A stretch of 64,000 bases of DNA. Origin: an uncultured Gammaproteobacteria bacterium. GTDB lineage: Bacteria > Patescibacteriota > Patescibacteriia > UBA9934. The notes under the pieces are model-generated. The model searched no databases, was not told where the DNA came from, and saw only the letters and a program-made list of their open reading frames with translations. Position numbers and translations under genes: made by a program. The stretch lies in NCBI GenBank assembly GCA_964599455.1, contig CAZREA010000002.1, positions 51,810-115,809 of the forward strand, written 5' to 3'. Below, piece after piece: positions 32,752 through 62,356 of this stretch (positions are counted from its first letter, which is position 1; every line of letters starts with the position of its first letter).

Positions 32752-32847
32752 GGAAAGATGATTCAACGAGTCGTCTTTTTTTAAATTCTTGACCATAGAT
32801 TTTGAACTGCTACCCTGGTACCGCCTTTTGGTAGGAGGATATACTTC

Positions 32848-33732
32848 ATGAGAATCAGTCGAGAACTTTCACGACAAGATGCGGAAAGAGCCGCACAGTC
32901 GCTTCGGGAACTTTTGCCAAACGGGGAAATTCCCCGCGTGGCCGTCGTTCTCGGCAGCGGCTGGGGCGATGCTCTTCCTTTGCAGGTTGCTCATGAGCGG
33001 CCCCTGCACGGAGGAGTGTCAGGCTTCGAGGACCTCGAACCTCATCCAACCCACGCGCGCAGAGTGCGTGTCGGAACCGTCAACGGAATATTGGTGATTG
33101 CGCTCCAAGGGCGCATTCATCTCAACGATGCGCTTCCGGGAACGACGGAGGAAGGTCGAATCTACGCCATGACGCGTCTGCAGGTGGAGATGCTGTACGC
33201 CCTGGGCGTACGCACCTTCATCCTGACCTGTGCCGCGGGTAGGTTGAGACCGAAGGGAAAGCCGCTGATCCCGGTAGGCAGCCTGGTGGTCATGGACGGT
33301 TTCGTGACCGGTTTTGCTCCGGCTATGCCGGGATTCAGTGGTGAGTTCCGAACCGCTGAAGATCTCCTCATCCACGAAAAGGAGGTGCTCAACGCCATCA
33401 AGAAAGGCGCACGGAATAATCCAAAAGTTCGAGTCGGCGGCTACCTCATGGTTCGCGGCCCGTTCTTTGAGGGGCGGAGGTACGACAAGCGGGTATATGC
33501 CAATACCGGCGCAAGCGTCATTGGCATGAGCGTGCTGCCCGAGGCAGCAGCACTCGCCGCTGCTTCGATGGGACGCGAGTCGTGCCGCATCGTAGGACTC
33601 GCCTTCGTCAGCAACGACGAGAAAGAGGTACACAGCGACGAAGAGATCCGTCGTCGTGCAGGCGAGTCGAGCGTCAAGCTCGGCGGGGCGCTCGAGCGCC
33701 TTATCGCGTACCTCGACACGAATCCGCAGTGA
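32848..33732 (+). CDS. purine nucleoside phosphorylase family protein (PNP/MTAP family, PF01048-like), GC-rich
   Basis: VVLGSGWGD, ALQGRIH, LTCAAGRL and GMSVLPEAAALA motifs; about 60% GC. Confidence 0.75.
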   Translation: MRISRELSRQDAERAAQSLRELLPNGEIPRVAVVLGSGWGDALPLQVAHERPLHGGVSGFEDLEPHPTHARRVRVGTVNGILVIALQGRIHLNDALPGTTEEGRIYAMTRLQVEMLYALGVRTFILTCAAGRLRPKGKPLIPVGSLVVMDGFVTGFAPAMPGFSGEFRTAEDLLIHEKEVLNAIKKGARNNPKVRVGGYLMVRGPFFEGRRYDKRVYANTGASVIGMSVLPEAAALAAASMGRESCRIVGLAFVSNDEKEVHSDEEIRRRAGESSVKLGGALERLIAYLDTNPQ

Positions 33733-33776
33733 CCGTAGGCCCATGCTGCACTCACGTGCGGCATGGGCCTTCATGT

Positions 33777-39304: not shown

Positions 39305-40603
39305 ATGCCTTCCCTCGCTACGGCTCCCAATCCTTGGCCTTTGCTCATTTGTATCGTCGGTCTTCTGTTCATTGCCGGTATCGCCTTTACGGCCGTATGT
39401 CTTTTGCAATTTATCAAGAGAAATCCTCATCTGAAAAAAATCGTCACCGTCATAACCCTCATCATTGCAATTGGTTTTGTGATCATGTTCGGATTGTCAC
39501 GTATCACAAAGACGAGTCAGGTTGTGGTTGTTGATGCAACCTGCAATATTCCCGGAGCAGATACGTTTACCAGGATTTTTCCAGGAAAGGTATGGATGAA
39601 AGATGTAACGAGTGGTGATATTTTTCCCTTGCGCTTCCCTACTGCAGGACCGGAAGGGAGTCGCATGAAAATTTTTGATCACGATGGAAAGCAAGTTAAT
39701 ACGTGGCACAGCTATACGTTTTGCGATCCCGATGCGCCATTTCCCGAGCAAGTCAAAGATATTTTTGATGCATCGCAACCGATCACCGTTACCTATAATC
39801 GTCTCGGCATTATCCGCTCTTGGCAACTAATCGAAGTAGTATCTCCCGATGCACTCGATGGAGAGATGAGCAATGGTCTTCCGGATTGGGTTGAAGGAAG
39901 TATGTCATTCAATGAATACACCGATCTCACCATCGATCTGAATGGCGATGATCGCAAGGAAAAGGTGACGCTTACTCTACACCCTGCAACGTCCGATGAT
40001 GAAGAATCGACCACTCTGACGATTGATAATCAAACGGTAAAAATTCCTGGAAGAAATCCCCAAGGCTATTTTGGTGTTGTCGATTTTGATACCAACGATC
40101 TCACGAAAGAAATCGCGGTGAGTGATCCTGGTCCAAGCGGCGACTATACGACGACATTTTATCGCTACGATGGTCAACGAATCATCGCGCTCGGAACAAT
40201 TTCTGGACTCTACGAAGCGATGCGTTTTGATGGAGAAGGCAAACTCACCACAAGCACCCGAGCACACATCTTGGATACTTGGTTCTATGACGACGAATAC
40301 GTACTCTCAAACAATGTTCTCGTGCGGCAAGAAAAAGAATTTTATGCACGCGTCAATCATCAGAATCCAGTAACGGTTTTATCATCCATAACCTTGCGTC
40401 TTTCGCCACTTGAAGATCAGACTATTTTCACCGTTGAGCCGGGAGAAGTCGTGATCATCACGGGATGCGATGACATCGAGTGGTGCGCACTCATAAACGA
40501 TAAAGGCATGCAGGGATGGTTTTCACTCAAACAATATGGACTCGTAGGAGAAGATGCGGTTTCAGCAGATACGCTTTTTAATGGCTTGTCGTGGGCGGAT
40601 TAA
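39305..40603 (+). CDS. hypothetical membrane protein with a C-terminal SH3b-like segment
   Basis: Two N-terminal TM helices; the C-terminal CDDIEWCALINDKGMQGWFSLKQYGL is SH3b-like. Confidence 0.4.
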   Translation: MPSLATAPNPWPLLICIVGLLFIAGIAFTAVCLLQFIKRNPHLKKIVTVITLIIAIGFVIMFGLSRITKTSQVVVVDATCNIPGADTFTRIFPGKVWMKDVTSGDIFPLRFPTAGPEGSRMKIFDHDGKQVNTWHSYTFCDPDAPFPEQVKDIFDASQPITVTYNRLGIIRSWQLIEVVSPDALDGEMSNGLPDWVEGSMSFNEYTDLTIDLNGDDRKEKVTLTLHPATSDDEESTTLTIDNQTVKIPGRNPQGYFGVVDFDTNDLTKEIAVSDPGPSGDYTTTFYRYDGQRIIALGTISGLYEAMRFDGEGKLTTSTRAHILDTWFYDDEYVLSNNVLVRQEKEFYARVNHQNPVTVLSSITLRLSPLEDQTIFTVEPGEVVIITGCDDIEWCALINDKGMQGWFSLKQYGLVGEDAVSADTLFNGLSWAD

Positions 40604-41514
40604 CTATGGAGCTTCCCTCTCAGATAAAAAATCTCTATTGCCATTGGGATCATCATACCGGAGGTGTGCATGAGACTCGAGAGAAGAGCTCTATACTCAT
40701 TCCCGACGAGCTCAAATGGTTCATTCATGAACGACTCGACATCTGGAAAAAGAAAACAGATAGCGAAGCGCCGCCGTATACAACCGATCCAATTTTATCC
40801 AAGTATCGTTTTTGTAATATCTTTCGCGAGTTTGATCGACAGACCATTGAGTTTCATACGCTTCTCAATCCTATTCGAGATAACTTTCCGCTCTGGCTTT
40901 TGAACATGTTTTATTGTCGGATGGTGGCACGAACTTCAACCATTAAACAGGTGGGGTTGTTGTCATTTGATGAAAAGATAAACGCGATTCGGTTGCAAAA
41001 ACTGCTCAACTCACCACGACCACGGTTCGGGACCCCGTACGTTTTCCCTATCAGTGTCATTCAAAAGAGTTCAACACCAACACGCGAGCTTTTTATTACT
41101 TCGTACTTGCCAAAAATCATATCTGCAATTGCTAACGAGATTCAAACCTGGAAAAAGATGTCGGTATACGATGGCGTTGCTCGCATCTTGCCCTTATTCG
41201 GATTCAATCTGCATTTCTTGTGGACCGAAGTGCTTATCGACGTCGCTTACCAATATCCGGAACACATTGATCTCTTTGCGCGTTTCCCGGTCGGACCTGG
41301 AGCACTGCCAACATTCCGTAGACTTGCTCCGCATCAAGATCCGAGTCTGCTTGCATCCGAACTCGCTTGCATACCCCTCGACACCAACATTACTATCAAT
41401 GGCAAACCCTTACGATTATCCGCAGAAAATTGGGAAGGTATCGGCTGCGAGTTTCGGAAATATACGAATCTCAAGCAAGGGAAAGGAAGAAAGAGGGTTT
41501 ATCAAAAAGAATAA
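40591..41514 (+). CDS. hypothetical protein
   Basis: 307-aa ORF; family not recognised. Confidence 0.35.
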   Translation: MGGLTMELPSQIKNLYCHWDHHTGGVHETREKSSILIPDELKWFIHERLDIWKKKTDSEAPPYTTDPILSKYRFCNIFREFDRQTIEFHTLLNPIRDNFPLWLLNMFYCRMVARTSTIKQVGLLSFDEKINAIRLQKLLNSPRPRFGTPYVFPISVIQKSSTPTRELFITSYLPKIISAIANEIQTWKKMSVYDGVARILPLFGFNLHFLWTEVLIDVAYQYPEHIDLFARFPVGPGALPTFRRLAPHQDPSLLASELACIPLDTNITINGKPLRLSAENWEGIGCEFRKYTNLKQGKGRKRVYQKE

Positions 41515-45380: not shown

Positions 45381-45438
45381 CGTTGTTTGGCCATTTTCTT
45401 CGTTTTTAGAGAAAGAAAATGGCGAGCGAAACGTTGTC

Positions 45439-45538
45439 ATTTGGAGATAGTTTTTGTCCGAAGAGCGAGGACCGGCGAGGCGTACTACCCATGTACGGTG
45501 AGCCGGCCGCAGCGATGAGGGCAAAAAATAGCCCAAAT
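45439..45538 (+). ncRNA. candidate structured small RNA/leader element, copy A (paralog at 62255-62356)
   Basis: About 100 nt, ~90% identical to copy B. Differences fall in hairpin loops or as compensatory pairs (ccgGc/gCcgg versus ccgAc/gTcgg). Hairpins gtcc-loop-ggac, cgtac-loop-gtacg and gggc-aaaaaata-gccc. Lies 17 nt upstream of tRNA-Arg. Strand assumed. Confidence 0.45.
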
Positions 45539-50756: not shown

Positions 50757-51449
50757 TCACGTGGCACTGCCGTAAGCAAGGGTGAGAACTTCGATTCGCT
50801 TTGCACCTGCTGCTTGTAATGCCAAAGCTGCTGCGGTGGCCGTTGAGCCGGTTGTCCACACATCATCCACAAGCAGAATCGTTTTTTCTCGAACCATATC
50901 AGGCTTTACACAAAGAAAAGGTTGTTCGGTGATAATCGCGACTCGTTCCTGTTTGTCCTTTTGCGCCTGCGCCTTGCCCGGAGTCCGTGTCAGGACATCA
51001 CAAACAGGTTTTTGCAGAAAATCCCCTACCCCATCCGCTATGGTTCTCGCTTGATTAAAACCTCGCTCGGCCTGTTTTTGTGGAGCTAACGGAACAGGAC
51101 AGATGCAATCACTATCGCCAAATAGTGACCCAACCTGTTCTCTTTCTAAATGTTCTTTCGTTAAAAACCATAACAGTTCAATACCCTGTTTATCTCCACT
51201 ATATTTATAAGCTTGCAACAATTGACGTACGGTTGGTGATCCATACGGAAAAAATGCCTGTACTCGGGCAATTGGCTCGGGAATCTCGGTTGGATGCCAG
51301 ATATTTTTCGGTCTTTCAAAGACATCAGTACATGATCGACAGAGCAAATCTCCTTCCGTCCCACAGGTAACACACTGCCGCGGGAAACAGGCATCAAGAA
51401 GCAAGGTCCACCAACGACCTATTCCCAACGATATTGCGCGACCTTCCAT
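50757..51449 (-). CDS. comF: ComF family protein (phosphoribosyltransferase-like competence protein)
   Basis: N-terminal C4 zinc finger (CVTCGTEGDLLCRSC) and a C-terminal PRTase motif ILLVDDVWTTGST. Confidence 0.75.
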   Translation of the reverse strand: MEGRAISLGIGRWWTLLLDACFPRQCVTCGTEGDLLCRSCTDVFERPKNIWHPTEIPEPIARVQAFFPYGSPTVRQLLQAYKYSGDKQGIELLWFLTKEHLEREQVGSLFGDSDCICPVPLAPQKQAERGFNQARTIADGVGDFLQKPVCDVLTRTPGKAQAQKDKQERVAIITEQPFLCVKPDMVREKTILLVDDVWTTGSTATAAALALQAAGAKRIEVLTLAYGSAT

Positions 51450-52003
51450 GTGGTATCGGCTTTGACAAGCACAAGAACAATTTCTTGATAACGAACTTCG
51501 GCATTCCCCGGATTGCCTCGCGCTTCATTGCGTTGCGTTTGGATACGCAGAGTCATTTCTGTATCGGTTTGGGAAACGGTTTTGGTACTCATAACCGTCG
51601 TTGAGATGCCATAATATCCGCCTTCAAGACTCTCTTCACTCTTACGGGAATCTTCGGCATTGCGTTCAAGCTCGGCACCAAGCTGATCGGTCACCAAACT
51701 CAAGACATCATGAATATTTTCGTAATTACTTTCTGATGAATAGCTGCCGAGACGCTCGACAAACGTGCGCGCCACAGTGGCCGGAGCCGTGACCTTGGGT
51801 GTGCTGGAAACGGTTGCGGGCGTGGTGGTATCGGTGGAAGTTGTCGGTTGGTCTTCGTTTGTTGGCAGAGTCTGTGTATTATCTGTTTCTGTGGTCTCAA
51901 CCTTAGCTTGTGGAGAGAATAAGAAAAGCCATAGCAATAAACCGATAAGGCCAAGTAGCAAAATAAGTGCCAAAACAATTTCGATAATGCGTTTGCGTTC
52001 CAT
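51419..52003 (-). CDS. hypothetical membrane-anchored protein (possible VirB8-like T4SS component)
   Basis: N-terminal TM, a Thr/Pro-rich linker and a ~100-aa globular C-terminus; lies at the edge of the T4SS-like cluster. Confidence 0.35.
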   Translation of the reverse strand: MERKRIIEIVLALILLLGLIGLLLWLFLFSPQAKVETTETDNTQTLPTNEDQPTTSTDTTTPATVSSTPKVTAPATVARTFVERLGSYSSESNYENIHDVLSLVTDQLGAELERNAEDSRKSEESLEGGYYGISTTVMSTKTVSQTDTEMTLRIQTQRNEARGNPGNAEVRYQEIVLVLVKADTTWKVAQYRWE

Positions 52004-52006
52004 AGA

Positions 52007-53938
52007 TTATACGTTGGATGGCGAAGATTCGCTTTGTTGCGATTGACGGAATTCTTCACGGGCACGTTCTTGTTGCAGAAGTTGCTCAGGATTTGTGGTG
52101 ATGAGTTGATCTTCCGTATACGAGGCTACCACCTTAATCGCTGCATGCTTTTGGCCGGCAAAGAAAATGCCCTCTCCAACGGCCGCTTCAAGCAACAAAT
52201 ACTTTTCATTTTGCGTAAGATTGAACGTACGCGCTACTAAATCAACGGCGGCCGGGGCTTGTTTGAGAAGAATCTGCAGCGATGAGTTTGTCACGATCGC
52301 TTGACCGTATTGTGAAGTAAGAAAATCGTTAACGTCTTGGGTAATGGTGGTGACGCCAAGATAGTATTTACGCGCGCGTTTGGCGAGCGCAAAAATAAAC
52401 TTGGCCGAATCTTCATTTTGCATGAGCCACCATGCTTCATCAATCACGAGAATACGCTTCTTTCGTTCAGAACGCACCACATTCCAAATGTAATTCACGA
52501 TAGTGTAGATGGCCATCGGTCGCAATTCATCTTCCAAATCACGCACAGAAAAAACCACCAGTTGATTGCGCATCTGTACGGTTGTAGGAGAATTCAGCAA
52601 GCCTGAAAATGTTCCGGTAGCATACTTTTCAATACGCGCCACCAAATTTTCTCCACCTTGCATACCCTGTAAAATATCCATGAGATCTCCCAAAACCGGA
52701 TAGTTCTCTACATTTACAAGCGATGGTAAATCGGGCGTAATATCTTTTTTGGCATATGCCTCCAACAAGGCACGATCGAGCATACTATCTTCCTCTGGTG
52801 TAAATCCCAACACCCCTCGCTCCCCCATCGGTTTACCAATCATGATACGCAAAAGACCCTTAAGCGTAATAACGGCACTGCGCAAAATATCATCAACAGA
52901 TGTTTCTTCACCTTTAGGACGAGGAAGATCAAAGGGATTCACTTTGGCTTCTGAAGCCAAGGAAACATTAATAAACGTACCCCCAACCGCATCGGACAAT
53001 TGGCGATATTCCATTTCCGGATCAATGACAATAACATCGGTTCCCATCATGAGTGAACGTAAGATTTCGAGTTTTACCGTATAGCTTTTACCGGCACCGG
53101 AACTGGCAAAGACGACGGTGTTCGCATTTTGTAACGAAAAACGATCAAATAAAATGAGCGAGTTATTGTGACGATTGATGCCGTATAAAATACCATTGTC
53201 ACTGGTAACATCAGACGAGGTGAACGGAAATGACGACGCAATCGGCGACGTGTTCATGTTAAAACTAATCATGAGTTCGTCGTTGCACAGCGGCAGCGTG
53301 GAATTAAAACCTTGTTCGGATTGATAAAACCCGCGCTTACTGTACATGAGCTTGGTGCCGAAAATCGATTCGATCTCTTCAGTTCGTTTATCCAGTTCTT
53401 CTTTACTTTTGGCGTACACGGTCACGTAAAACGCAAATTGGAAAAAATGTTCGATGCCTTGGGTTAAATCATCACGAAGCTGTTCGACATCGCGCAAGGC
53501 CGTTTCTTGAATAGGATCACGAGGCTTTCCCGTGTCGTGATCGGAGACGATTTGCGACTCGATGATACCGACTTTATCGCGCAGCTGCTTGAGAATAACT
53601 TCGGGTGGAATGGGATAAAAATACATCCCCATATCAATCGTTCCTTTGTAATTGATAATGGGTCCTCCCCATCCAATTCCCACATAACGAGGGTAAGCGG
53701 TCACAAAAAGCGTACGTACGTACCGATCGCCTAGGATAAGAAAATTTGGCTGCACGTCAAACGATGATGGTGCAATCAAATCACGAATAGAAACGGTACC
53801 GCGTCGATAAGTGCGCTCTTCTTCGAGCGTGGTTTTTTCTTCAACGCTGCGCAGCTCTTTATCGGATAATACGCGCTGCGTGCCGGCTTTGGCTGCAGCT
53901 GCCTGCTGCCGTTTGAGATCTTCAATGTTAAACGACAT
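52007..53938 (-). CDS. virB4: VirB4/TraE-like conjugal-transfer ATPase, C-terminal (ATPase) part
   Basis: Walker A ASSGAGKSYT, IDPEMEY and DEAW (Walker B); AAA_10/DUF87-like architecture. Confidence 0.8.
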   Translation of the reverse strand: MSFNIEDLKRQQAAAAKAGTQRVLSDKELRSVEEKTTLEEERTYRRGTVSIRDLIAPSSFDVQPNFLILGDRYVRTLFVTAYPRYVGIGWGGPIINYKGTIDMGMYFYPIPPEVILKQLRDKVGIIESQIVSDHDTGKPRDPIQETALRDVEQLRDDLTQGIEHFFQFAFYVTVYAKSKEELDKRTEEIESIFGTKLMYSKRGFYQSEQGFNSTLPLCNDELMISFNMNTSPIASSFPFTSSDVTSDNGILYGINRHNNSLILFDRFSLQNANTVVFASSGAGKSYTVKLEILRSLMMGTDVIVIDPEMEYRQLSDAVGGTFINVSLASEAKVNPFDLPRPKGEETSVDDILRSAVITLKGLLRIMIGKPMGERGVLGFTPEEDSMLDRALLEAYAKKDITPDLPSLVNVENYPVLGDLMDILQGMQGGENLVARIEKYATGTFSGLLNSPTTVQMRNQLVVFSVRDLEDELRPMAIYTIVNYIWNVVRSERKKRILVIDEAWWLMQNEDSAKFIFALAKRARKYYLGVTTITQDVNDFLTSQYGQAIVTNSSLQILLKQAPAAVDLVARTFNLTQNEKYLLLEAAVGEGIFFAGQKHAAIKVVASYTEDQLITTNPEQLLQQERAREEFRQSQQSESSPSNV

Positions 53939-53941
53939 AGG

Positions 53942-54643
53942 TTAAGACAGTTTGGTTTCAAGTTGCAGCTTCGCAATCTCTTCGAGTGGTTGCGTATCGG
54001 CAACTTCAGGATTATAGGTGTTGTAATACAACTCAATAAGGCCCTGCGTATCAAGGAGCGCCACCGCAAGTCCCATACTTTCCAAGCCACCTCCAATCAT
54101 CTCTGCTCTACGCATGAGTCGTTCGTGGCGTTCGGCAAATTGCTTGGCATTGAGCTTTACTACTGAAGCCGGTGAGATGGCTGTTTGGACCTTAGCGAAA
54201 AAACCTTTGCCTTTTTCGCCCGATTCCGAAGGATCGTAGGGAATAATCACAAAAAAACGCTTTTGCATGATTTCTCCCAAATCGACCAGTTCTTTAATAA
54301 ACGAAACGTAATCGCGAATTTGTGTTTTTAACAGCTCGTTGGCAATGGTTTCTTCTTGTGATTTTAACTTTGCAAGATAGCCATCAATATTCATTTTGCG
54401 CGATTGAATGCAAATCTGAATTGGATGTTCGAGCGTATTTAAAAACTGCATGTAGCCTTGAATAACCGCTTGTTGTTCGTCGTCACTTTTGAGGGCAAAA
54501 TTGATACTGGAAACCATGAGCACACTGCGCATGGTGCCGTCTTTCATGACCACGGCATTTTCACGAATTTCGGCAATATCCAAAAAACGTTGCGTGGGAG
54601 GAGCGAATTTTGGCTTGGTCATGGTAGTGCTCGTTTTTGCCAT
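53942..54643 (-). CDS. VirB4-like N-terminal domain encoded as a separate ORF (split gene or pseudogene)
   Basis: FLDIAEIRENAVVMKDGTMRSVLMVSSINFALKSDDEQQAVIQGYMQFLNTL resembles the VirB4/PrgJ N-terminal region. Its stop TAA is separated by 3 nt (CCT) from the ATG of the ATPase ORF. Confidence 0.5.
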   Translation of the reverse strand: MAKTSTTMTKPKFAPPTQRFLDIAEIRENAVVMKDGTMRSVLMVSSINFALKSDDEQQAVIQGYMQFLNTLEHPIQICIQSRKMNIDGYLAKLKSQEETIANELLKTQIRDYVSFIKELVDLGEIMQKRFFVIIPYDPSESGEKGKGFFAKVQTAISPASVVKLNAKQFAERHERLMRRAEMIGGGLESMGLAVALLDTQGLIELYYNTYNPEVADTQPLEEIAKLQLETKLS

Positions 54644-54652
54644 ACAAAAATA

Positions 54653-55099
54653 TTATCTTCCCTCTTCTTCATCACTGCGATAAACGCCACCCGTATTCAC
54701 AACGAGCGTTAACTCAGACAAACGCGACGTTTCCAATGGACTTTTGACCGGACGTTTTTCCACAGCGGCGGCAATATCCTTTTTTAAATAGACGCGTAAA
54801 TCAGCATCAGACAGCGTTTTATCCCAAATACGACGAGCAGGTTTTTTGATCGTCTGAAAAACATTTAACACAATAAAATGCAACGGTTGCCCATTCACTT
54901 TACCAAAGGCAAAAGCTGCACCAAGCCCAGCAACGGGCAATCCAACGGCAAGCATGGCCACGACATTTAAAAAGATGCGATAAATAATAAATTCAGTCAC
55001 GATCACGCCGACCATGATAATAAATTGTCGCAAGGTAATCGGACCAAGAATTTTTGGCTCGACATCAAGAAATTGTGGCACGACAAATTGCTGAGGCAT
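54653..55099 (-). CDS. PrgI/VirB3-like small T4SS membrane protein
   Basis: Start taken at the internal ATG at 55099 (MPQQFVVPQFLDVEPKILGPITLRQF...) followed by two TM helices, matching the PrgI family layout. Confidence 0.5.
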   Translation of the reverse strand: MPQQFVVPQFLDVEPKILGPITLRQFIIMVGVIVTEFIIYRIFLNVVAMLAVGLPVAGLGAAFAFGKVNGQPLHFIVLNVFQTIKKPARRIWDKTLSDADLRVYLKKDIAAAVEKRPVKSPLETSRLSELTLVVNTGGVYRSDEEEGR

Positions 55100-55221
55100 G
55101 AGGGAAGTATAGCAGAAGGGAGAGAGGGGATTGAGGGAAAAGGATAAGGAATGTTTTTGAGGAGGTTTTAAGGAGGAATCAGGTGATAAAACATCACAAA
55201 TCATCCACATCTTCTCTCCCC

Positions 55222-57171
55222 TCAAAACCGCAGTCGCTCGTTTAACCCCGACAACGCCTTTACTTCGGCGGGGCCCAGGCTTTCGTCGCCCTTGGCGCGC
55301 AAACGCGCAGCAATCTCGGCGATAGCAACTGCATTTTGTAACGATTCGGTCATCATGCGCACGTATACTGTTTGCAGCGGGCTTTTGCGCCAAGCTAAAA
55401 TACCACGAACCCGTTCTTGATAATCACTTTTTTCCAGCGTTTCCAACAATGATTCAATTTTTCGCACCGCTTCTTCGGGTTGTGGCGATAAACGACGAAA
55501 ATCTGCCAGATTCATGGAGGCAAGTTGCTCAATAGGCCCCATGAGCTTGTTGCCCGGAACGACATCAGCAACTTTCTTTTGCTGCGCAGGCTCTGTCACC
55601 GGTGGCACACTGCCTTTGGTTAGCATTACTTTTGCGGGTGCGGGTTTTACCTCTTGTGCACGCGCCGTTGCCGCCGTTGCCTGTGCCGCTCGTTCAGCAT
55701 GGGCGTCGCGTGCACCCGAAACTTGCGCGCCAGGAAGAATGGGCGCGATGGAATCCGTAGGCAGCGAACCGGTAAGCGCGGCAAATTTCTTATCAAGCAT
55801 TTCCGCTTCTTGCAGTTCGATGCGATCAGCATCACGCTCGGCTATTTCTTCATCTTTCCCATCAACCGCAGAAACGGCTTCACCCGCCAAGCGATACATT
55901 TCTAATCCCGCCTTTATAGCCTCTAGAAGAAGAGGCAAGTGTGCGCCTTTCACTCGATAATCTCTCTCTAAAATATCGTGTGTTTGATACAGATCACGAA
56001 TACCTCGCAACGTTTTTCCTGCGATATCAGCAAAAGCTGCACGCGGTAATTGTACTTCATCAAGTGTGGCCCCGGCTTTTTCTAAAATATTATCGATCGC
56101 CTTGGCGAAAGCACCTTGCAACGCTTCGGCATGAGTTTTGTAGAGCTTCTTTGCAAGCTTCACATCAGCGATATCGGGCTGCGCGATTGCGTCATCCTGA
56201 CTCTTCTTTGTAGCGGGGCGAGTGCGCGAGGGATCTATCGTGCCCTTCCCAACGCTCTGTTTCTTCGGTTGTTCATGCAAAATCTCACCGCTAATTACGG
56301 GAACCTGGGCTGCAACGGCATGCGTGGGCATGATTTCGAGAGCGTGGTCGGGGGGGGTGATGATGGGCGCTGGTTCGGCCGCATCTGATGCCTTTTCCCC
56401 TGCGGCAAGGGAGACGGGTCGGCTTGCCCTGAGCGACGGCGAAGGGCGACCCGTCTGTACGTCGACAGAAGGCGCATCATGTCCGCTATCCGTTTTACTT
56501 GCCCTCCGAAGCTCGAGTGTCGGTGAGAGCGTAGGAGGGTCCGTTTTTGATCCGTCCTTATCCGTTCCTACTTCCCCCAACTCCACGCCATTAATCTCCT
56601 CCCCCAATATCTTCATTACTGCGTCATTCTGCTCTTTCGATAATCCCAATCCACCAATATTCAACGATCGACCAAAAAAGGTTCGTAAACTGTCATCAGT
56701 TTTTTGACCCGCGAGGCGTTGTTCGAGCAAAAAAGCCAAACGTTTTATGAGCACATCCGAAAATTGCACATTTGCTTTTTGAGCAATACGCTCGGCAAAT
56801 TTCTCAGACGTAATCCGTTCTTTTTCAACACGAAGCGCGGGATACGCTTTCACATCTCCACCCCAGGCAACAATTTGCTTTTCAACACCAGGAAGATATT
56901 TCTCCAAGGGCAGCAATCGATATCCCGCCACATCAGCAGCAATCTGTTTGGCTTTTTCTTCATCAATCGCAAACGCTTCTGCAATCATGGTAGGCATGTC
57001 GGCTAAAGGAAGTTGGTCGTCGAGAATAGCATCAGCGAGATCGAGAAACTCATTCGTCCGATCTTCGGGGAGTTGATATTTTTGAACGAGTTCATCCAAG
57101 ACATCATAAATTTGCCCATCCTGAAGAAAAGCACGAGTCGATGAAATATTCAGCAGTTTTGCTAAAACCAT
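55222..57171 (-). CDS. hypothetical protein in the T4SS-like cluster
   Basis: 649 aa with no recognised motif; contains RPE-like copy 3 in the opposite orientation (encoding GTDKDGSKTDPPTLSPTLELRRASKTDSG). Confidence 0.5.
   Translation of the reverse strand: MVLAKLLNISSTRAFLQDGQIYDVLDELVQKYQLPEDRTNEFLDLADAILDDQLPLADMPTMIAEAFAIDEEKAKQIAADVAGYRLLPLEKYLPGVEKQIVAWGGDVKAYPALRVEKERITSEKFAERIAQKANVQFSDVLIKRLAFLLEQRLAGQKTDDSLRTFFGRSLNIGGLGLSKEQNDAVMKILGEEINGVELGEVGTDKDGSKTDPPTLSPTLELRRASKTDSGHDAPSVDVQTGRPSPSLRASRPVSLAAGEKASDAAEPAPIITPPDHALEIMPTHAVAAQVPVISGEILHEQPKKQSVGKGTIDPSRTRPATKKSQDDAIAQPDIADVKLAKKLYKTHAEALQGAFAKAIDNILEKAGATLDEVQLPRAAFADIAGKTLRGIRDLYQTHDILERDYRVKGAHLPLLLEAIKAGLEMYRLAGEAVSAVDGKDEEIAERDADRIELQEAEMLDKKFAALTGSLPTDSIAPILPGAQVSGARDAHAERAAQATAATARAQEVKPAPAKVMLTKGSVPPVTEPAQQKKVADVVPGNKLMGPIEQLASMNLADFRRLSPQPEEAVRKIESLLETLEKSDYQERVRGILAWRKSPLQTVYVRMMTESLQNAVAIAEIAARLRAKGDESLGPAEVKALSGLNERLRF
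56483..56576. repeat. RPE-like palindromic element, copy 3, in frame inside the 55222-57171 gene, inverted orientation
   Basis: The plus strand reads ccgctatccgttttacttgccctccgaagctcgagtgtcggtgagagcgtaggagggtccgtttttgatccgtccttatccgttcc, the reverse complement of the copy 1 form. Confidence 0.7.
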
Positions 57172-57177
57172 ACCTCC

Positions 57178-60100
57178 TTAGGTCATGTAGCGGTCAGCAG
57201 CACGATAGGCATTACGAAGATCATTCAGACGTTTCATTTCAGCTTTACCTGCACCACCTGGATCTATAACCGTTGCACGATGGGTACGCAACGTTTGATC
57301 GATAACCGACATCGCTTCTTTAATAGCTGTCTTTCTTCCCACATCCGTTTCAGCACGCATCATATCTCCGAGCTTCTGGATCTCCTGAGGAGTCAACCCT
57401 CGTATTACCGTATTTGTTACATCATTTCTAGTTGTTGCTGCAAAAGCACTTGATACCGCAGGTGCAAGTTGTCTTACCGCGGAAGGATCAGCCTGAATAA
57501 CCTGTTGCACTCGTAACTGTGCGTCGCGAGGAACAGCAAATGCAGGATTTGAAGCTGCATTCAAATCAAGACGAGGGATGAGATCACCAAGATTTTTACC
57601 TGCGAGCAATAATTTCTTACGAATAGCATTAGCGTCATCCATACTAATAGCCGATCTCGTCTCCATATCTTCAAGCTGTGCTTGAATTTCATCGTGTACC
57701 GCGCTACTTGTTTTTCGAAGATCAACATCAGCTTTAGCCATTGCCAAGACTGCATTATCGGCATTTGGGCCCATAAAATGATAATCTCGCAAATCAGATT
57801 CGTCGACCTGTTTATTTTTATATGCCTCAACAAGATTATCAGATTCTTGAGTAGCAAAAGCCTGCGTAACAAAGGTGTTTCTTACATCGGCAGTCGTAAT
57901 GCTCGGCGACATTCCCGGAGGCGCCACTCTCGCCGCTTCTGCTACTTCTTCAGCCGCCATGTCCTCAGATCGAGTTCCGGCCTTAATCAAGGCTTGGACA
58001 ACGCTTACATTAATAGGCGGCCCCACGACACCAGGCGCGGGAGTTGAAGAAGTGGTATTTCCAAGATCTGCTAACGTTACCGATCGAGCACCTCCACGCT
58101 TGTACAGATCAGTCAGACGATCTGTATCGCCAGCATTCCTTGCACTTGGTAATGCAGGAGCGATTTTTGAAGAACCATATGCACCACGAGCCAATTCATC
58201 CCATTTAGAAATATTCTTTCCGCTTTCGGTTTTGGCGTAAGAAGCCTTAAGTGCCGCGATCACCGCTGGATCTCCTACGGCTTCATCACGCATGACGCGA
58301 GGATCAAAATCTGGAGAATCGATAAAGGCTTGTGCCTTAGCTGCATCAACCTCCATGTATTTATCGATAAATTGAGAGCGTGCCTTCTTCCAATCGCCAT
58401 CATCAAGTAAACGATGATCTTTATCGTGGTCGTATTCCGCAAGAATACCTTTCGCAAAATTCTCTGCATGCTGTTTGCCATTTCTATCTCGTTTCTCACT
58501 AGCATCTCTAAACTTCTTGAATAATTTGGCATCTTTGAGCATTTCTGCCTGCAAATTTCTTGCAATCGCATAATCTTCTTGGGTTTTTGGCTGTACACCT
58601 CTACTTATCTGATGCAAACGCTCAAGCTTGACATCTTCTGTCATGCCCGCAATAGCTTCCTTTGCCTTTTTATTTTCAGGCTCATCTAAATGATGAAGAG
58701 CTCCGTAGGCCGCAGTACCTGCATTCATGATAGTGGTTGAGCCCAGGAAGGCACCGGCACCGGTCAATTTCTTTGCAGACCATGCACCTGCAGTTCTTGC
58801 GCCGCGAACAGTACTATCAAACGGATGCTCGGCAACAGAAGCACTTTTCGCAACGAAACGAGCAGTTTTAGATAAACCTCCCGTTCCCACAGTTCGTTCA
58901 AGACCTGCCGCAGTAAGATTTCCACCAACACGCGTAAGTGTTGCTGGAACCGCCAAACCCGCCCGTGCCACCCGTCCGCCAATACGAGCACTCGTACTCA
59001 TCACGCGCCTGCCCATTTTTTCGTTGATAACCTTCCCTGCCAAACCGCCCAATTTGCTCGACCACTGAGCCGATTCTTTCATGCCCACTAACAAGAAGAC
59101 AACGCCCAGCAGTAAGCCCGTGAGATTGCTTGATTCAAAAATTTCCAAATACAACTGACCATAGGTCGTGCGCTTTTCTGGTTCGGGGAAACTTTCGGTT
59201 TGAGCAAGGTTGCCATTTGAGGCTGCGGCTAAGGACAACCACAAGAAAAAGGCGAGCATCGGGCCCAGAACCAAGGCCGCAGTAAATTGCCCCATCCATT
59301 GACCCCAAAAACTTCCCAAAAAGCCAATAACTTCTTTTGATCCCCAGGCAAAAAATGCCAAAGGTGACATGATGACGGCAATCCACAACACAATAATGCG
59401 CCAAATAAAGGCAACGGCGAGGAGCACAATCACTACCATGACCGCACCTTGCACAATAAGTTTTCCGTAGGCATTGGCGATGTTGGAGGCAACAGAAATT
59501 GCGACGTCACCCGCTTCCGAAGCAGCTTCGAGCGTTGAAGCAGAATATTGCGAGGCTTGCGGCATGACGAGGAGCTGGGCAAAGTTTCCTGCCGCGATAT
59601 CGAGGAGTGCGTTTACGAACGTCATCATGACGATTTGACTTGCATCAATCGCCAAGCCACACACGGTACGACTGAAGTTCACAAGCACAACCGCGCCAAA
59701 CAACCGAGGCAATTGTTGATCCCAGCCACTACCTGTCTTAAAACCCACCATGGTTTTGACGGCGATGACCAATAACACGATAACCACACCCATGTTGACG
59801 ACATCACGGGTAAGCGTCCAGCCAAGAGTAACGATGTTGGAATTGGCAAAGTTGTTGTAGTTAAGCACCTGAATGACCACGACTTCTAACAACGTAATGG
59901 TGATGGAACCCAATCCGTTTGCCACCCAGTTCATGACCTGAGCAATGTAGCCACCAATCCAAATTCCCACTCCATCGGCAGTAGTCCAGGCAAGATTGGC
60001 CGAACCACCGGTATTTGAAGAAGCAGCATCTGCAGCTGCAGACGAAGAAACCGTCGTATCTTCTTGAGCAAAGGCGACAGTAGGTTGAGCAAGAAGAACA

Positions 60101-60249
60101 TTTCCTGCAAAAACAAAAGTGACTACGCTAAAACATGCGAGTGCAAGCATTCTCAACCTTGTCCTAAGCAACATAGATATCAGTAGTATAGCAGAGATGA
60201 AAGAACGAATGCGTGAAAAATGAAGTGAAGATGTGGACGCGCCTTTCAC
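57178..60249 (-). CDS. VirB6/TrbL-like polytopic membrane protein with a long C-terminal domain
   Basis: 1023 aa; signal peptide, about 8 TM helices, then a ~600-aa Ala/Lys/Asp-rich soluble tail; positioned within the VirB4/PrgI cluster. Confidence 0.45.
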   Translation of the reverse strand: MKGASTSSLHFSRIRSFISAILLISMLLRTRLRMLALACFSVVTFVFAGNVLLAQPTVAFAQEDTTVSSSAAADAASSNTGGSANLAWTTADGVGIWIGGYIAQVMNWVANGLGSITITLLEVVVIQVLNYNNFANSNIVTLGWTLTRDVVNMGVVIVLLVIAVKTMVGFKTGSGWDQQLPRLFGAVVLVNFSRTVCGLAIDASQIVMMTFVNALLDIAAGNFAQLLVMPQASQYSASTLEAASEAGDVAISVASNIANAYGKLIVQGAVMVVIVLLAVAFIWRIIVLWIAVIMSPLAFFAWGSKEVIGFLGSFWGQWMGQFTAALVLGPMLAFFLWLSLAAASNGNLAQTESFPEPEKRTTYGQLYLEIFESSNLTGLLLGVVFLLVGMKESAQWSSKLGGLAGKVINEKMGRRVMSTSARIGGRVARAGLAVPATLTRVGGNLTAAGLERTVGTGGLSKTARFVAKSASVAEHPFDSTVRGARTAGAWSAKKLTGAGAFLGSTTIMNAGTAAYGALHHLDEPENKKAKEAIAGMTEDVKLERLHQISRGVQPKTQEDYAIARNLQAEMLKDAKLFKKFRDASEKRDRNGKQHAENFAKGILAEYDHDKDHRLLDDGDWKKARSQFIDKYMEVDAAKAQAFIDSPDFDPRVMRDEAVGDPAVIAALKASYAKTESGKNISKWDELARGAYGSSKIAPALPSARNAGDTDRLTDLYKRGGARSVTLADLGNTTSSTPAPGVVGPPINVSVVQALIKAGTRSEDMAAEEVAEAARVAPPGMSPSITTADVRNTFVTQAFATQESDNLVEAYKNKQVDESDLRDYHFMGPNADNAVLAMAKADVDLRKTSSAVHDEIQAQLEDMETRSAISMDDANAIRKKLLLAGKNLGDLIPRLDLNAASNPAFAVPRDAQLRVQQVIQADPSAVRQLAPAVSSAFAATTRNDVTNTVIRGLTPQEIQKLGDMMRAETDVGRKTAIKEAMSVIDQTLRTHRATVIDPGGAGKAEMKRLNDLRNAYRAADRYMT

Positions 60250-60298
60250 AGTAAACAGAAAAACGGCTCGAGTACATGAAGTACCCGAGCCGCACGAT

Positions 60299-62191
60299 TC
60301 ATTCCGCGGTCACCGTCAGACCACAGCCATCCGACGTGGGATCGTCGGTGGGCGTGACGCCCATGTCGCAGCCGTCCCAGTAGGCGGTTGCCTCGCCCTG
60401 GACGGTGCCAGACGGAAAAGGCGCGAGGCACGACCAGCTCGTCGCGCCATCGATCACGAATTCGACCGAGAAGCGCAGGCTGTCGCCCGAGCTCATCGAA
60501 CGGGTATAGGTGATCGAGGTCGCATCCTCGACCTCGGCGAGTTCGCTGGTCCAACCCGAGCTGTCGCCCGAGGCATCGGTGAACTCGCCCGACAGGGTGA
60601 TGCGATCAGCACGCTCGGCGTCGGGCGTCGTCCAGGTGAGGACGAGCACGTCGCCGGTCGAGCCACAGGTGTCGGATTCGTCGCCTTCCTCGACATCGGA
60701 CGTACCGGATTCGTCAGCATCTTCCCCATCCGATTCGTCGTCCTCGTCTTGAGTGGGATCGGGCGTGCCCGACCCCTGCGACTCTTCCTCTTCCTCTTCC
60801 TCTTCCTCTTCCTCGAGCTCTCCCGCCGTTGTGTAGGTCAAGTCCTCTTCATCTGCCGCACATTCCGTAATTACTTCCGGACTCAGACAGTACAGATCCG
60901 TACTACAGCTGCCGGTGGTGCTCACGGCGTCCTCGAAGTCATCTTCGTCGACCTCGATGACGGTGCGGTTGCTGAAGCCGAGCATGAGGTACGTGTCCCA
61001 CGAGACAATCGGCATGGCGATACCATCACTCATGAGGTACACGTCGCTCTTGCCGATAGGCGACACCAGGCTGCCATCGCGATAGCTGGCCGTTCCCGCC
61101 TTCGGATAGTCGGCGATGATGCCGCCCTCGAAGTCGGTGTCGTACAACAGATCATCATAGGTCGAGGCGGTGATGCCCCAGCTTTTGAGGATGCCCTGCC
61201 AGCCCGAGGTCGGCACTTTCAGACGATAGCGCTCGCCGTCGTCGGTGGTGCCGAACAGCAGCCAGACGCTCGTCGACGAGCTTTCGCTCACGACGGCGAA
61301 AATCTGCGTGTCGTCGGCGATGCCCTCGCCTTCGCCCAGACAGGTGAGTTCATCGGTGGTGATCAGGGCGACGTTGTCGAAGTCATAGTTGCGGGTGAGA
61401 AACGAGGTCTCGGTGATGAAGGGGCGAGCACTGTCGCCGTCGATGAGGTAGACGGCCGCATCGTCCGGCGTCTTCACGAGCGTGCCGTTGGGGTGCATGC
61501 GCACCACCGGCAGTTGCGACTGGTACAGGTGTCCACGGGTGAGGTCGCAGGTCAGGTCCGTGACCGCAATCTCGTCGCTGTCGCCATCGGTTGTCATATC
61601 GGCAGTCACGAACGAAAGCCCCTTGATGGAAGCACCTTTTATGCCGTCCTTCGAGGCCGTGCCGCTGTGGCGACCGATATGGATGTGATCGCCGCTGGCA
61701 TTGCCAGTCTCGCCCTCGTAGGCAAGGAACTGCCCGGCGGCCACCTCGCTGCCGCTGTCGATGAAGATCTCGGACAGATGCCCCAGGATGATATAGGTGC
61801 CGTCGCCGAGATCGATGTTGATGTGGTAGCCGAAGTTGACGTCGGCATCGGTGTCGTGCACGTATGCCGTACCCGACACCGGCGCGAACACCGGTACATC
61901 GATATCGTTGGGCGTGTCAAAATCCGCGTCGTAGCGGGTGCTCGTGCCCGTATGCGAGTAGCTACCACCCGCACCTTGCGTGCACAGGTACTCCTCGCCG
62001 GCCGCGAAGGGCAGGTTGATGGTGATACTGTCTTCGCCACCGCCAGTAATGCCCGTATCCTGCGTGTCCGTAGGAATACTCACGACCGTCGGCGTACAGG
62101 AAACAATGAACAGACCGAGAAACGAAGGAATGGAACGTGTCATGGGAAGAACCCTCTTGAGGATGCGATCATCAGCGATCACCTTCCCCAC
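60299..62191 (-). CDS. M23 (LytM-type) metallopeptidase lipoprotein with a poly-Glu tract, GC-rich
   Basis: Lipobox LGLFIVSCT; M23 motifs HTGTSTRYDADFD and GETGNASGDHIHIG; (GAG/GAA)n at about 60783-60815 encodes nine Glu; about 60% GC. The start appears to be GTG. The antisense 658-aa ORF is judged spurious. Confidence 0.7.
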   Translation of the reverse strand: MGKVIADDRILKRVLPMTRSIPSFLGLFIVSCTPTVVSIPTDTQDTGITGGGEDSITINLPFAAGEEYLCTQGAGGSYSHTGTSTRYDADFDTPNDIDVPVFAPVSGTAYVHDTDADVNFGYHINIDLGDGTYIILGHLSEIFIDSGSEVAAGQFLAYEGETGNASGDHIHIGRHSGTASKDGIKGASIKGLSFVTADMTTDGDSDEIAVTDLTCDLTRGHLYQSQLPVVRMHPNGTLVKTPDDAAVYLIDGDSARPFITETSFLTRNYDFDNVALITTDELTCLGEGEGIADDTQIFAVVSESSSTSVWLLFGTTDDGERYRLKVPTSGWQGILKSWGITASTYDDLLYDTDFEGGIIADYPKAGTASYRDGSLVSPIGKSDVYLMSDGIAMPIVSWDTYLMLGFSNRTVIEVDEDDFEDAVSTTGSCSTDLYCLSPEVITECAADEEDLTYTTAGELEEEEEEEEEEESQGSGTPDPTQDEDDESDGEDADESGTSDVEEGDESDTCGSTGDVLVLTWTTPDAERADRITLSGEFTDASGDSSGWTSELAEVEDATSITYTRSMSSGDSLRFSVEFVIDGATSWSCLAPFPSGTVQGEATAYWDGCDMGVTPTDDPTSDGCGLTVTAE

Positions 62192-62254
62192 TCGTTGGAA
62201 GTCTTATGAAAGACGAGTGGGAAAAACGATTGCATTGCGTTACAAAACGATTTT

Positions 62255-62356
62255 ATTTGGAGATAGTTTCTGTCCTGAAAAGCGAGGACCGACGAGGCGT
62301 ACTGACGAAAGTACGGTGAGTCGGCCGCAGCGATGAAGGCAGAAAATAGCCCAAAT
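62255..62356 (+). ncRNA. candidate structured small RNA/leader element, copy B
   Basis: Paralog of 45439-45538; followed by a strong hairpin ggggcttgg...ccaagcccc and about 500 bp without a credible ORF. Confidence 0.45.

Follow-up and report, generated by a model that had tools for sequence, protein, structure and literature searches.

Adjacent trsD-like and virB4 genes in a conserved, relaxase-less T4SS-like cluster of Patescibacteria

Gene content and order of the cluster

We describe here a gene cluster on the minus strand of the window, which is the whole stretch of 64,000 nucleotides analysed, and its features are collected in Table 1. On the whole, the T4SS-like cluster proposed by the first-pass annotation is borne out by a VirB4 ATPase and by matches to PrgI and to the VirB8 fold, and the open reading frames it listed are all present as described, with corrections to the start of the 1023-aa frame and to the extent of the cluster, whose upstream edge is the M23 peptidase gene, beyond the interval 51419-60249 given earlier. 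The order M23, polytopic, 649-aa, PrgI, TrsD-like, VirB4, VirB8-like, ComF is maintained across 80 related loci in a synteny comparison, and radA (30763-32067) and recG (33777-35852) are found within the same window.

Table 1. Features of the cluster, in window positions and in the order of transcription
Feature	Positions	Strand	Basis or remark
M23-family peptidase	60299-62191	minus	Pfam Peptidase_M23
Intrinsic-terminator-like hairpin	60253-60293	minus	13-bp stem, 8 GC pairs, T-run; hairpin proper 60293-60263
Extended -10 promoter box TGCTATACT	60185-60193	minus	10 nt upstream of ATG 60174
Polytopic membrane protein, ~998 aa from the suggested start (nominal ORF 57178-60249, 1023 aa from GTG)	57178-60174	minus	hydropathy, start reassessment
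649-aa soluble protein, no known family	55222-57171	minus	ORF, no TM segments
Dispersed palindromic repeat copy	56422-56544	minus	in-frame in variable linker of the 649-aa ORF
Extended -10 box TGCTATACT	55106-55114	minus	ends exactly 6 nt before PrgI ATG
PrgI/VirB3-like small membrane protein, 148 aa from the most likely start	54653-55099	minus	Pfam PF12666
TrsD/TraC-like protein, 233 aa	53942-54643	minus	VirB4 N-part and TrsD/TraD profiles
TAA-CCT-ATG junction between both VirB4 parts	53936-53944	minus	sequence reading
Short VirB4 ATPase, 643 aa	52007-53938	minus	NF045971 CD1110-family profile
VirB8-like bitopic protein, 194 aa	51419-52003	minus	AlphaFold2 and Foldseek
ComF-family (ComFC-type) protein, 230 aa	50757-51449	minus	TIGR00201, Pfam Pribosyltran

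One may ask whether the cluster lies in an integrated conjugative element and the T4SS is the mating channel of that element, since the closest named relatives of its recognisable parts are Gram-positive conjugation systems and a MITE-like repeat flanks the region (45429-45538 and 62245-62356). However, no relaxase, coupling protein or integrase is present among the window ORFs scanned with Pfam, the cluster adjoins the znuABC housekeeping genes in the same gene order in dozens of species, and its GC content, the M23 gene excepted, is that of the surroundings; moreover, relaxases occur in only 103 genomes according to a published survey (Quinonero-Coronel et al. 2025, PMC12102498). We hold such an element to be very improbable. 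The cluster forms a conserved chromosomal unit without relaxase and is, in all probability, a vertically inherited T4SS typical of ABY1-class Patescibacteria, the relatives of Uhrbacteria and Falkowbacteria.

At the upstream edge, the M23 peptidase scores above the cut-off of Pfam Peptidase_M23 (E 6e-12), is a probable lipoprotein with its true start likely at ATG 62143 (MTRSIPSFLGLFIVSC...), and is a candidate for the VirB1-type cell-wall hydrolase of the cluster; at least 27 of the 80 related loci carry an ortholog immediately before the polytopic gene. An ORF on the opposite strand (60233-62209), where GC is 59%, was rejected as a shadow ORF. Hydropathy analysis gives the polytopic protein a signal or TM segment, some 6-7 TM segments within its first 400 aa and then about 600 aa of hydrophilic tail; at least 53 related loci conserve the TM core. 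The terminator-like hairpin follows the M23 stop codon directly and overlaps the nominal GTG start 60249, which together with the -10 box downstream of it suggests that translation begins at ATG 60174; across the window TGNTATACT is present 6 times, with 0.67 expected. This protein had been called VirB6-like, a name that is carried by topology and position, while every homology test to VirB6/TrbL, by Pfam, NCBIfam, PDB or hhalign, is negative; it occupies the VirB6 position, and VirB6 homology is unproven.

The 649-aa protein has no TM segments by hydropathy and no family match in Pfam/NCBIfam profile searches. Its alignment shows conserved N- and C-terminal domains around a hypervariable middle, its gene is syntenic in nearly all of the 80 loci, and a strong Shine-Dalgarno sequence (aaggaggt) precedes it, 6 nt past the upstream stop. 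The proposed RPE-like insertion in this ORF is plausible, and what we observe there is an in-frame copy of a dispersed palindromic repeat in the hypervariable linker, where the residues are extra relative to the orthologs. The arms 12359-12421 and 56482-56544 have 92% complementarity; the repeat recurs at 20072-20122, and 10531-10555 matches 56422-46.

For the PrgI/VirB3-like protein, which has two TM segments, the earlier label holds with a Pfam PF12666 score of 36.1 bits above a cut-off of 27 (E 1e-8); its true start is most likely ATG 55099, and in 77 of 80 loci the next gene downstream is the TrsD-like one. The possible VirB8-like anchor protein is confirmed at the level of modelled fold. 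It consists of an N-terminal TM helix, a Thr/Pro-rich linker and an NTF2-like domain, and the AlphaFold2 model of the 194-aa protein (pLDDT 87.9) has its best Foldseek matches in CagV/VirB8, TrwG/VirB8, TcpC, PrgL and Brucella VirB8, with E from 1e-5 to 1e-3, so that a VirB8/NTF2 fold behind the TM helix is predicted; the gene is syntenic in most of the 80 loci. The comF label is supported at the family level: Pfam Pribosyltran is above its cut-off, TIGR00201 comF reaches E 2e-20 yet remains below its curated cut-off, and the match to the DZR_2 zinc ribbon is weak. At least 55 of 80 loci have the ComF gene after the VirB8-like one.

The two VirB4 parts and their junction

Read on the minus strand, the junction is ...ctg tct TAA cct ATG tcg ttt..., with both ORFs in one shared frame and 3 nt apart, the distance that had been reported. 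Profile searches bear out the identity proposed for each of them. The 643-aa ORF is a VirB4 ATPase with 342.7 bits against the CD1110-family profile NF045971 (curated cut-off 325, E 4e-102), covering positions 158-730 of 752 in CD1110 and 282-892 of 894 in Mbov_0397, with Walker A (SSGAGKS) and Walker B (ILVIDEAW) intact in the translation. The 233-aa ORF, proposed as the VirB4 N-domain, matches NCBIfam Mbov_0397 VirB4 at positions 104-233 (E 2e-9), CD1110 at 2-103 (E 5e-5) and the TrsD/TraD profile (E 1e-6), and public gene calls start this TrsD-like gene at ATG 54622 (226 aa). Checked against full-length VirB4 profiles, both ORFs are colinear with complementary coverage, and in an in-silico concatenate residues 18-845 align as one stretch to profile positions 105-892 of 894, with a score of 290 bits, up from 252.6. 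Two stretches fall outside these profile matches: the C-terminal 100 residues of the TrsD-like protein, which are conserved, and the first 20-45 residues of the ATPase. The fold of the TrsD-like protein resembles TrwK, and, judging by these comparisons, the protein is the detached first N-terminal subdomain of VirB4. Among its 2750 homologs the best 120 are all of 201-244 aa with 65-81% identity, and the family, with 2475 clusters at 50% identity, mostly of 200-260 aa, consists mainly of stand-alone proteins.

Our comparison set comprises 80 related species-representative loci, and in the 78 where both genes could be placed they are separate without exception. The stop of the TrsD-like gene is TAA, TAG or TGA, and virB4 lies in any of the three relative frames. 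The spacer was measured from this stop to the first in-frame ATG of virB4: 54 of the 78 loci have 1-10 nt there, and about 18 have tens to hundreds of nt. In three loci (L064, L066 and L068) it reaches 4.9-6.2 kb, and each of these has its own TGGTATACT box before virB4; the inserted DNA is GC-rich, and L064 and L068 have it extensively in common, L066 sharing only short stretches. Among the relatives, the small ORF is 51-78% identical and the large ORF, over full-length matches, 64-87%, and the ATPase start M-(A/S)-(F/I) is conserved. In addition, the two parts are naturally fused in P0312 (797 aa, three Colwellbacteria assemblies) and in P0314 (898 aa); in both, the VirB4 part is 50% identical to that of the window, with the TrsD-like part directly N-terminal to it.

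Of the two alternatives left by the first-pass annotation, the 78 related species bear out the genuine two-gene arrangement, its translational coupling being predicted, and refute the recent nonsense mutation. A split of virB4 by such a mutation, or by a sequencing or assembly error, leaving a pseudogene or crippled system, would fit the shared frame, the single sense codon between the ORFs, where one base change could make the stop, and the full-length fused relatives. It has next to no probability, however, as the stop stands at the equivalent place in all 78 species with three stop codons and three frames, the ATPase start and both parts are highly conserved, the Walker motifs are intact, and an identical protein is found on two other public contigs. 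Programmed read-through of TAA-CCT, giving one fused VirB4 as the functional protein, could likewise draw on the shared frame and 3-nt spacer and on the in-frame 3- or 6-nt spacers of several relatives. Most spacers, however, are 1, 2, 4 or 5 nt or much longer and put the ATPase in another frame, the ATPase always has its own ATG and conserved N-terminus, all three stop codons serve, and a conserved recoding signal is absent among the relatives compared, which makes read-through extremely improbable. The TrsD-like protein might also be a separate paralog or an accessory factor (a regulator or a chaperone, for instance) that resembles the VirB4 N-terminus without completing the ATPase structurally. 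This we judge unlikely: the short VirB4 is without exactly the profile segment that the TrsD-like protein supplies, the fusions keep the canonical order, adjacency is near-universal, spacers of 1-10 nt occur, and PMC12102498 gives the TrsD gene and virB4 as essential in Southlakia epibionticum. We are therefore highly confident that the split VirB4 is the normal ancestral two-gene layout, as in the pGO1/pSK41 branch of the Gram-positive MPF-FATA systems.

Gene spacing and predicted expression

The gaps are 9 nt between the PrgI and TrsD-like genes, 3 nt between the TrsD-like gene and virB4, and 3 nt between virB4 and the VirB8-like gene (TAA-TCT-ATG), while the last overlaps comF by 31 nt; a 3-nt gap is thus not peculiar to the VirB4 pair. 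Reading of the upstream sequences reveals no Shine-Dalgarno sequence before the trsD-like, virB4, virB8-like and comF genes, and from this together with the spacing we infer that these downstream cistrons would be translated by termination-reinitiation coupling, which would hold both VirB4 parts in fixed proportion. Upstream of prgI, a strict -10 box (TA[TC]A[AC]T) at the 6-nt spacing is present in 39 of the 76 sequences scored, the window itself included, and TGGTAAAAT- or TGGTAGAAT-type variants are near the same place in several further sequences. A box so close to the ATG predicts a leaderless prgI-trsD-virB4-virB8-comF mRNA.

Known relatives and possible role

Among the closest known layouts is TrsC-TrsD-TrsE of the staphylococcal conjugative plasmids pSK41/pGO1 (pGO1 subclass, MPF-FATA). 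In pSK41, trsC (135 aa), trsD (227 aa) and trsE (672 aa) have the same order as the window genes, TrsE aligns end-to-end with the 643-aa ORF (E 3e-40) with the same profile start position, and the profile built on the small ORF recognises TrsD. The two systems agree in order and sizes: a VirB3-like small membrane protein is followed by one of about 230 aa with remote homology to the N-terminus of VirB4 and, a few nt downstream, by a short VirB4 of about 650-670 aa. Both clusters also contain a peptidoglycan hydrolase. They differ in that the ATPases are 24% identical and TrsD is detectable only by profiles; the hydrolase is M23 here and CHAP/SLT there; the window cluster is chromosomal and ends in comF, while the other is plasmid-borne with a relaxase, the coupling protein TrsK and a recognisable TrbL/VirB6-family protein, none of which was found near the window cluster. 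Compared with full-length VirB4 (the CD1110 family, PrgJ-type in Gram-positives, and TrwK of R388), the two ORFs together are colinear and have the Walker motifs, whereas the break between them falls inside the N-terminal domain, at roughly profile position 150.

The TrsD and VirB4 pair is already known and catalogued for Patescibacteria. PMC12102498 reports TrsD as the most abundant T4SS component there, with 1664 of 2272 copies adjoining virB4, relaxases mostly absent, and comF, recG and radA in the T4SS loci of the ABY1 class. The window agrees in the TrsD homolog beside virB4, the PrgI/VirB3 protein, the lack of a relaxase and the chromosomal location, as well as in the ABY1 hallmarks of adjacent comF, nearby recG and radA and a detectable VirB8-like protein; there is no difference in kind, and the window is one more genome. 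The spacer statistics, the fused Colwellbacteria forms, the conserved prgI -10 box and the fold-level VirB8 assignment are not taken from that paper.

In the machine that we propose, the TrsD-like protein (about 230 aa) would be the first VirB4 N-subdomain and the TrsE-like short VirB4 (about 640 aa) the rest of the N-domain with the RecA-type ATPase, and the two polypeptides would assemble non-covalently into one VirB4 unit. By analogy with the VirB4 N-domain in the R388 structure, the TrsD-like part may dock the ATPase hexamer onto a membrane platform of PrgI/VirB3, the VirB8-like protein and the polytopic protein. The machine is probably not conjugative, because neither relaxase nor coupling protein is nearby. 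The T4SS is essential in S. epibionticum (Wang et al. 2023, as cited in PMC12102498), where comEC is dispensable (PMC12857230, which also gives the T4SS as essential), and ComB has been mentioned as precedent of a DNA-uptake T4SS (PMC11665869). Due to the coupled ComF gene and to radA and recG in the window, a role in DNA handling or uptake is the leading guess for this class. The Helicobacter pylori ComB system (with ComEC/ComFC) is similarly a relaxase-less T4SS with genetic linkage to recombination genes and a ComF-family protein. ComB belongs to the diderm VirB2-B10 type and shares no transcript with comF, whereas the envelope here is monoderm-like, and DNA uptake by the window T4SS is a guess by analogy; the likeness would suggest import rather than export.

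A conserved two-gene VirB4 arrangement

On the minus strand of the window, the stop codon TAA of the 233-aa ORF is followed by one codon, CCT, and then by the ATG of the 643-aa ORF in the same frame, as the first-pass annotation had described. The other ORFs that it listed are present as well, with two refinements, namely the extent of the cluster and the start of the 1023-aa ORF. Two explanations had been offered for this pair, a genuine two-gene arrangement of VirB4 and a recent nonsense mutation, and comparison of the sequences confirms the former. The 643-aa ORF (the short VirB4, or ATPase) scores 342.7 bits (E = 4e-102) with the NCBIfam profile NF045971 of CD1110-family VirB4-like conjugal ATPases, above the curated cut-off of 325 bits, with a match to positions 158-730 of 752. 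Its translation has the Walker A motif SSGAGKS and the Walker B motif RILVIDEAW, and its Pfam matches are DUF87, AAA_10 and P-loop_TraG. The N-terminal domain and the ATPase domain of VirB4 are thus not found in one polypeptide, as the ATPase begins at position 158 of 752 and the separate 233-aa ORF supplies positions 2-103 (CD1110 profile, E = 5e-5). The small ORF further matches the Mbov_0397 VirB4 profile of NCBIfam (positions 104-233, E = 2e-9) and the TrsD/TraD profile NF041427 (residues 27-134 on profile positions 25-142 of 201, E = 1.1e-6), so the similarity to VirB4 N-domains that had been proposed for it is borne out. When the two ORFs are joined in silico, a single alignment results, of residues 18-845 to positions 105-892 of 894, and the concatenate scores above either ORF by itself against the VirB4 profile.

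The score with NF041427 is 28.6 bits, below its curated cut-off of 200 bits, and in hhalign the profile of the small ORF is matched by TrsD of pSK41, a staphylococcal conjugative plasmid, with E = 1.8e-4 and a probability of 49%. By these matches the 233-aa ORF is related to the TrsD/TraD family by remote homology only. It has the size of a TrsD-type protein (about 200-230 aa) and the expected place, flanked by a VirB3-like gene and a short VirB4. The order and sizes are those of pSK41, with trsC (135 aa, VirB3-like), trsD (227 aa) and trsE (672 aa); the alignment of TrsE with the 643-aa ORF covers both proteins from end to end (E = 3e-40), and both begin at the same position of the VirB4 profile. 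A local copy of Pfam (E ≤ 0.1) gives no family for the small ORF, and PDB sequence searches with it, alone and as a profile, gave nothing relevant; for the public protein P0001, which is identical (226 aa, start ATG 54622), the precomputed annotation is PF26593, TraC-like. Of the 2750 database homologs of the small protein, each of the best 120 stands alone, at 201-244 aa and 65-81% identity; they belong to Patescibacteria wherever named, and have PF26593 in their precomputed annotation too.

Below we report the junction in related genomes, where 80 species-representative loci were fetched and both genes could be placed in 78. In all 78 the genes are separate. A stop codon, TAA, TAG or TGA, closes the small gene at the corresponding place, and the ATPase gene opens with a conserved start of its own, M-(A/S)-(F/I); relative to the small gene, it may be in any of the three frames. 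Measured to the first in-frame ATG, the spacer has 1-10 nt at 54 of the 78 loci; about 18 loci have 19-484 nt, and three species have 4.9-6.2 kb. This pattern of stops, starts, frames and spacers rules out the nonsense mutation suggested for the window, an error of sequencing or assembly, and also a conserved read-through fusion, for which neither the relative frame nor the spacer should vary among the loci. In the three species with long spacers (L064, 1132-6089; L066, 8672-14898; L068, 8666-14012), the gap is a 5-6 kb block of hypothetical or unannotated ORFs with 64% GC, against 52% in the flanks, and virB4 is preceded by its own -10 box TGGTATACT. The homology of the block is extensive between L064 and L068, and L066 has only short stretches in common. 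In one further related species (locus L055, 5288-9190), the VirB4 gene has an intein with a LAGLIDADG-type endonuclease region, inserted directly after the GAGKS of Walker A, giving a 1300-aa ORF.

We also searched 1.84 billion cluster representatives for relatives of the small protein. The matches are mostly 200-260 aa long, and two natural fusions from other Patescibacteria are found among them, P0312 (797 aa, seen in three assemblies, Candidatus Colwellbacteria) and P0314 (898 aa), in which a TrsD-like part is joined directly to a VirB4 50% identical to that of the window. These fusions are the best evidence that both polypeptides may act as one unit.

Features of the T4SS cluster and its surroundings in the window
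Feature	Coordinates	Strand	Remarks
M23 peptidase	60299-62191	-	
ORF opposite M23 gene	60233-62209	+	658 aa
Polytopic protein	57178-60249	-	1023 aa; about 998 aa if the start is ATG 60174
649-aa protein	55222-57171	-	
PrgI	54653-55099	-	
TrsD-like small ORF	53942-54643	-	233 aa
Short VirB4 (ATPase)	52007-53938	-	643 aa
VirB8-like protein	51419-52003	-	194 aa
ComF	50757-51449	-	
DsbA-like thioredoxin	28637-29281		
T4SS_pilin-domain protein	29286-30680		464 aa
radA	30763-32067		
recG	33777-35852		
HMUDK_hel ORF	40591-41514		307 aa
Retroelement reverse transcriptase	15251-16243	-	Pfam RVT_1
Retroelement template repeat	16700-16832	-	
Retroelement variable repeat	17283-17415	-	3' end of target ORF 17280-18212
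MITE-like element, two copies	45429-45538 and 62245-62356		about 125 nt, ~90% identical
Dispersed palindromic repeat	12359-12421, 20072-20122, 56422-56544, also 10531-10555		core CCCTCC...GAGCTTCGGAGGG, ACGGAT motifs flanking

Other members of the cluster

Searched by tblastn with the window proteins, the 80 loci have a fixed gene order: M23 peptidase, polytopic protein, 649-aa protein, PrgI, TrsD-like protein, VirB4, 194-aa protein and ComF, with a znuABC-type transporter often next after ComF. PrgI (148 aa, with two hydrophobic segments) matches Pfam PF12666 with 36.1 bits against a cut-off of 27. For the 194-aa protein, which had been proposed as a possible VirB8-like anchor, the AlphaFold2 model (pLDDT 87.9) has a transmembrane helix at residues 2-29, a linker and an NTF2-like alpha+beta domain, and its best PDB matches in Foldseek are CagV, TrwG/VirB8, TcpC, PrgL and Brucella VirB8 (E = 1e-5 to 1e-3, probability 1.00). 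These matches of the predicted model confirm the name VirB8-like at the level of the fold. Pfam and NCBIfam give no VirB8 sequence model for it, just a weak NTF2_YvbJ match (E = 0.028); the lack of a VirB8 profile match is usual for Gram-positive VirB8-like proteins.

The VirB6 label of the 1023-aa polytopic protein fares differently from one line of evidence to another. The protein has the topology of "extended VirB6" proteins: in the hydropathy plot, about 6-7 hydrophobic segments fall within residues 30-394, with a long hydrophilic tail after them. The place of its gene in the T4SS cluster is conserved across the related loci. Homology to VirB6/TrbL (PF04610) was found by none of the sequence methods: the window protein has no match in Pfam or NCBIfam, 18 orthologs have none in Pfam at E ≤ 1, nor do orthologs and neighbours in precomputed Pfam annotation; hhalign with the TrbL-family protein of pSK41 gives a probability of 1.9%, a profile search of PDB sequences gives nothing relevant, and one of a 5.8-billion-protein database gives 13 matches, none annotated. 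The label is therefore positional only and should stay provisional. The 649-aa protein is soluble and conserved at both ends, with no transmembrane segment and no family match in Pfam or NCBIfam. As to comF, the Pribosyltran domain is above its cut-off (31.2 against 26.3 bits), and the DZR_2 zinc ribbon (E = 1.4e-3) and TIGR00201 (73 against 233 bits) are below theirs. The TIGR00201 match extends over the full length (E = 2e-20), and by its profile matches the 230-aa ORF is probably a ComF-family (ComFC-type) protein with the PRTase fold. A 658-aa ORF also lies exactly opposite the M23 peptidase gene, and is almost certainly a shadow ORF from the local high GC (59%) and that gene's acidic repeats.

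Concerning expression, a strong terminator-like hairpin is located directly 3' of the M23 gene, a box TGCTATACT lies 10 nt upstream of the polytopic gene's ATG 60174, and a second TGCTATACT (55106-55114) stops exactly 6 nt short of the ATG of prgI. These proposed extended -10 boxes, with no -35 element, were picked out by eye before being tested. Of 76 sequences scored, the window among them, 39 have a strict -10 box at the 6-nt spacing before prgI, and several more have close variants; the extended form is TGnTATACT or TGnTATAAT. The motif TGNTATACT has 6 occurrences in the window against 0.67 expected, and a generic sigma-70 scan gives fewer promoter-like sites than chance. With the 6-nt geometry, transcription would begin at the A of the ATG of prgI, which predicts a conserved leaderless transcript of the T4SS operon. 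Downstream of prgI the junctions are 9, 3, 3 and -31 nt without Shine-Dalgarno sequences, showing that TAA-CCT-ATG is ordinary operon packing in this cluster, and virB4 is likely translated by termination-reinitiation coupling.

The wider neighbourhood

The ORFs that were scanned with Pfam in the 64-kb window include no relaxase and no VirD4/TcpA-type coupling protein, which a conjugative MPF-FATA T4SS would have with its cluster, and no integrase. The genes radA and recG and a T4SS-pilin-domain protein are located 17-22 kb from the cluster (26544-35852), together with the DsbA-like thioredoxin and two further ORFs without assignment. The MITE-like copies, one of them 17 nt upstream of tRNA-Arg and the other just upstream of the M23 gene heading the T4SS cluster, fold to a long near-perfect hairpin (z = -7.4 and -8.4); they have no Rfam match and no conserved ORF, and Rfam finds no known RNA upstream of the M23 gene. 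We also weighed, and rejected, an integrated element bounded by the 110-nt direct repeats (45.4 and 62.3 kb), because the repeats are this MITE-like hairpin and not a tRNA 3' end, and the scanned ORFs include no integrase. The dispersed palindromic repeat resembles the Rickettsia palindromic elements: its copies lie within coding sequences (pheT, a phosphoglucomutase-family gene and the 649-aa gene of the cluster), and where the 649-aa gene has its copy, in a hypervariable linker, the protein has residues that the orthologs lack.

Two other regions of the window are noticeable. A canonical diversity-generating retroelement occupies 15251-18212 (-), where all 16 mismatches within the 133-nt repeat fall on A of the template copy. 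The 307-aa ORF has the Pfam domain HMUDK_hel (5-hmdU DNA kinase helical domain, E = 8e-14), which is better known from phage DNA hypermodification pathways.

Relation to the T4SS of Patescibacteria

The closest relatives of the window are Uhrbacteria, Falkowbacteria or other Patescibacteria MAGs. MAG records with this Patescibacteria-type cluster (L002, L003, L004 and many others) carry the title "uncultured Gammaproteobacteria bacterium" or "Candidatus Kapaibacterium sp."; these organism names are probably placeholders or mistaken. In the 2025 survey (Quinonero-Coronel et al. 2025, PMC12102498), TrsD is the most abundant T4SS component in Patescibacteria, with 2272 homologs of which 1664 adjoin virB4, and is described as essential in Southlakia epibionticum; most of the systems lack a relaxase, homologs of VirB8 are almost restricted to class ABY1, and comF, recG and radA are common at ABY1 loci. 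The window fits this description point by point, with TrsD by virB4, VirB3/PrgI, comF adjacent, recG and radA near and no relaxase, and 26544-35852 is an ABY1-type neighbourhood in the same terms. The arrangement of TrsD with a short VirB4, and of comF, recG and radA at ABY1 loci, is hence already known from that survey, and the window adds nothing to it in these respects. Modest additions, not taken from the portions of PMC12102498 used here, are the spacer and frame statistics, the Colwellbacteria fusions, the fold-level VirB8 and the proposed conserved leaderless-type promoter.

For annotation, pipelines and readers should not flag the TrsD-like/VirB4 pair as a pseudogenised virB4, and the 194-aa neighbour can be named VirB8-like. 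In Southlakia epibionticum, the only species tested, the T4SS of Patescibacteria is essential to epibiotic growth according to PMC12102498, and reviews state that its role is not known, with effector delivery or uptake of DNA or nucleotides as speculations (PMC11665869, PMC12857230). For a system that is essential there, the list of its parts matters. A bolder reading, which we hold to be improbable, is that the ABY1 prgI-trsD-virB4-virB8-comF operon would be one import machine: a relaxase-less monoderm T4SS, translationally and physically coupled to ComFC and feeding RadA and RecG, would take DNA or nucleotides from the host cell, with a detachable TrsD gating assembly of the VirB4 motor. If true, this machine would be the monoderm counterpart of the ComB system of H. 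pylori.
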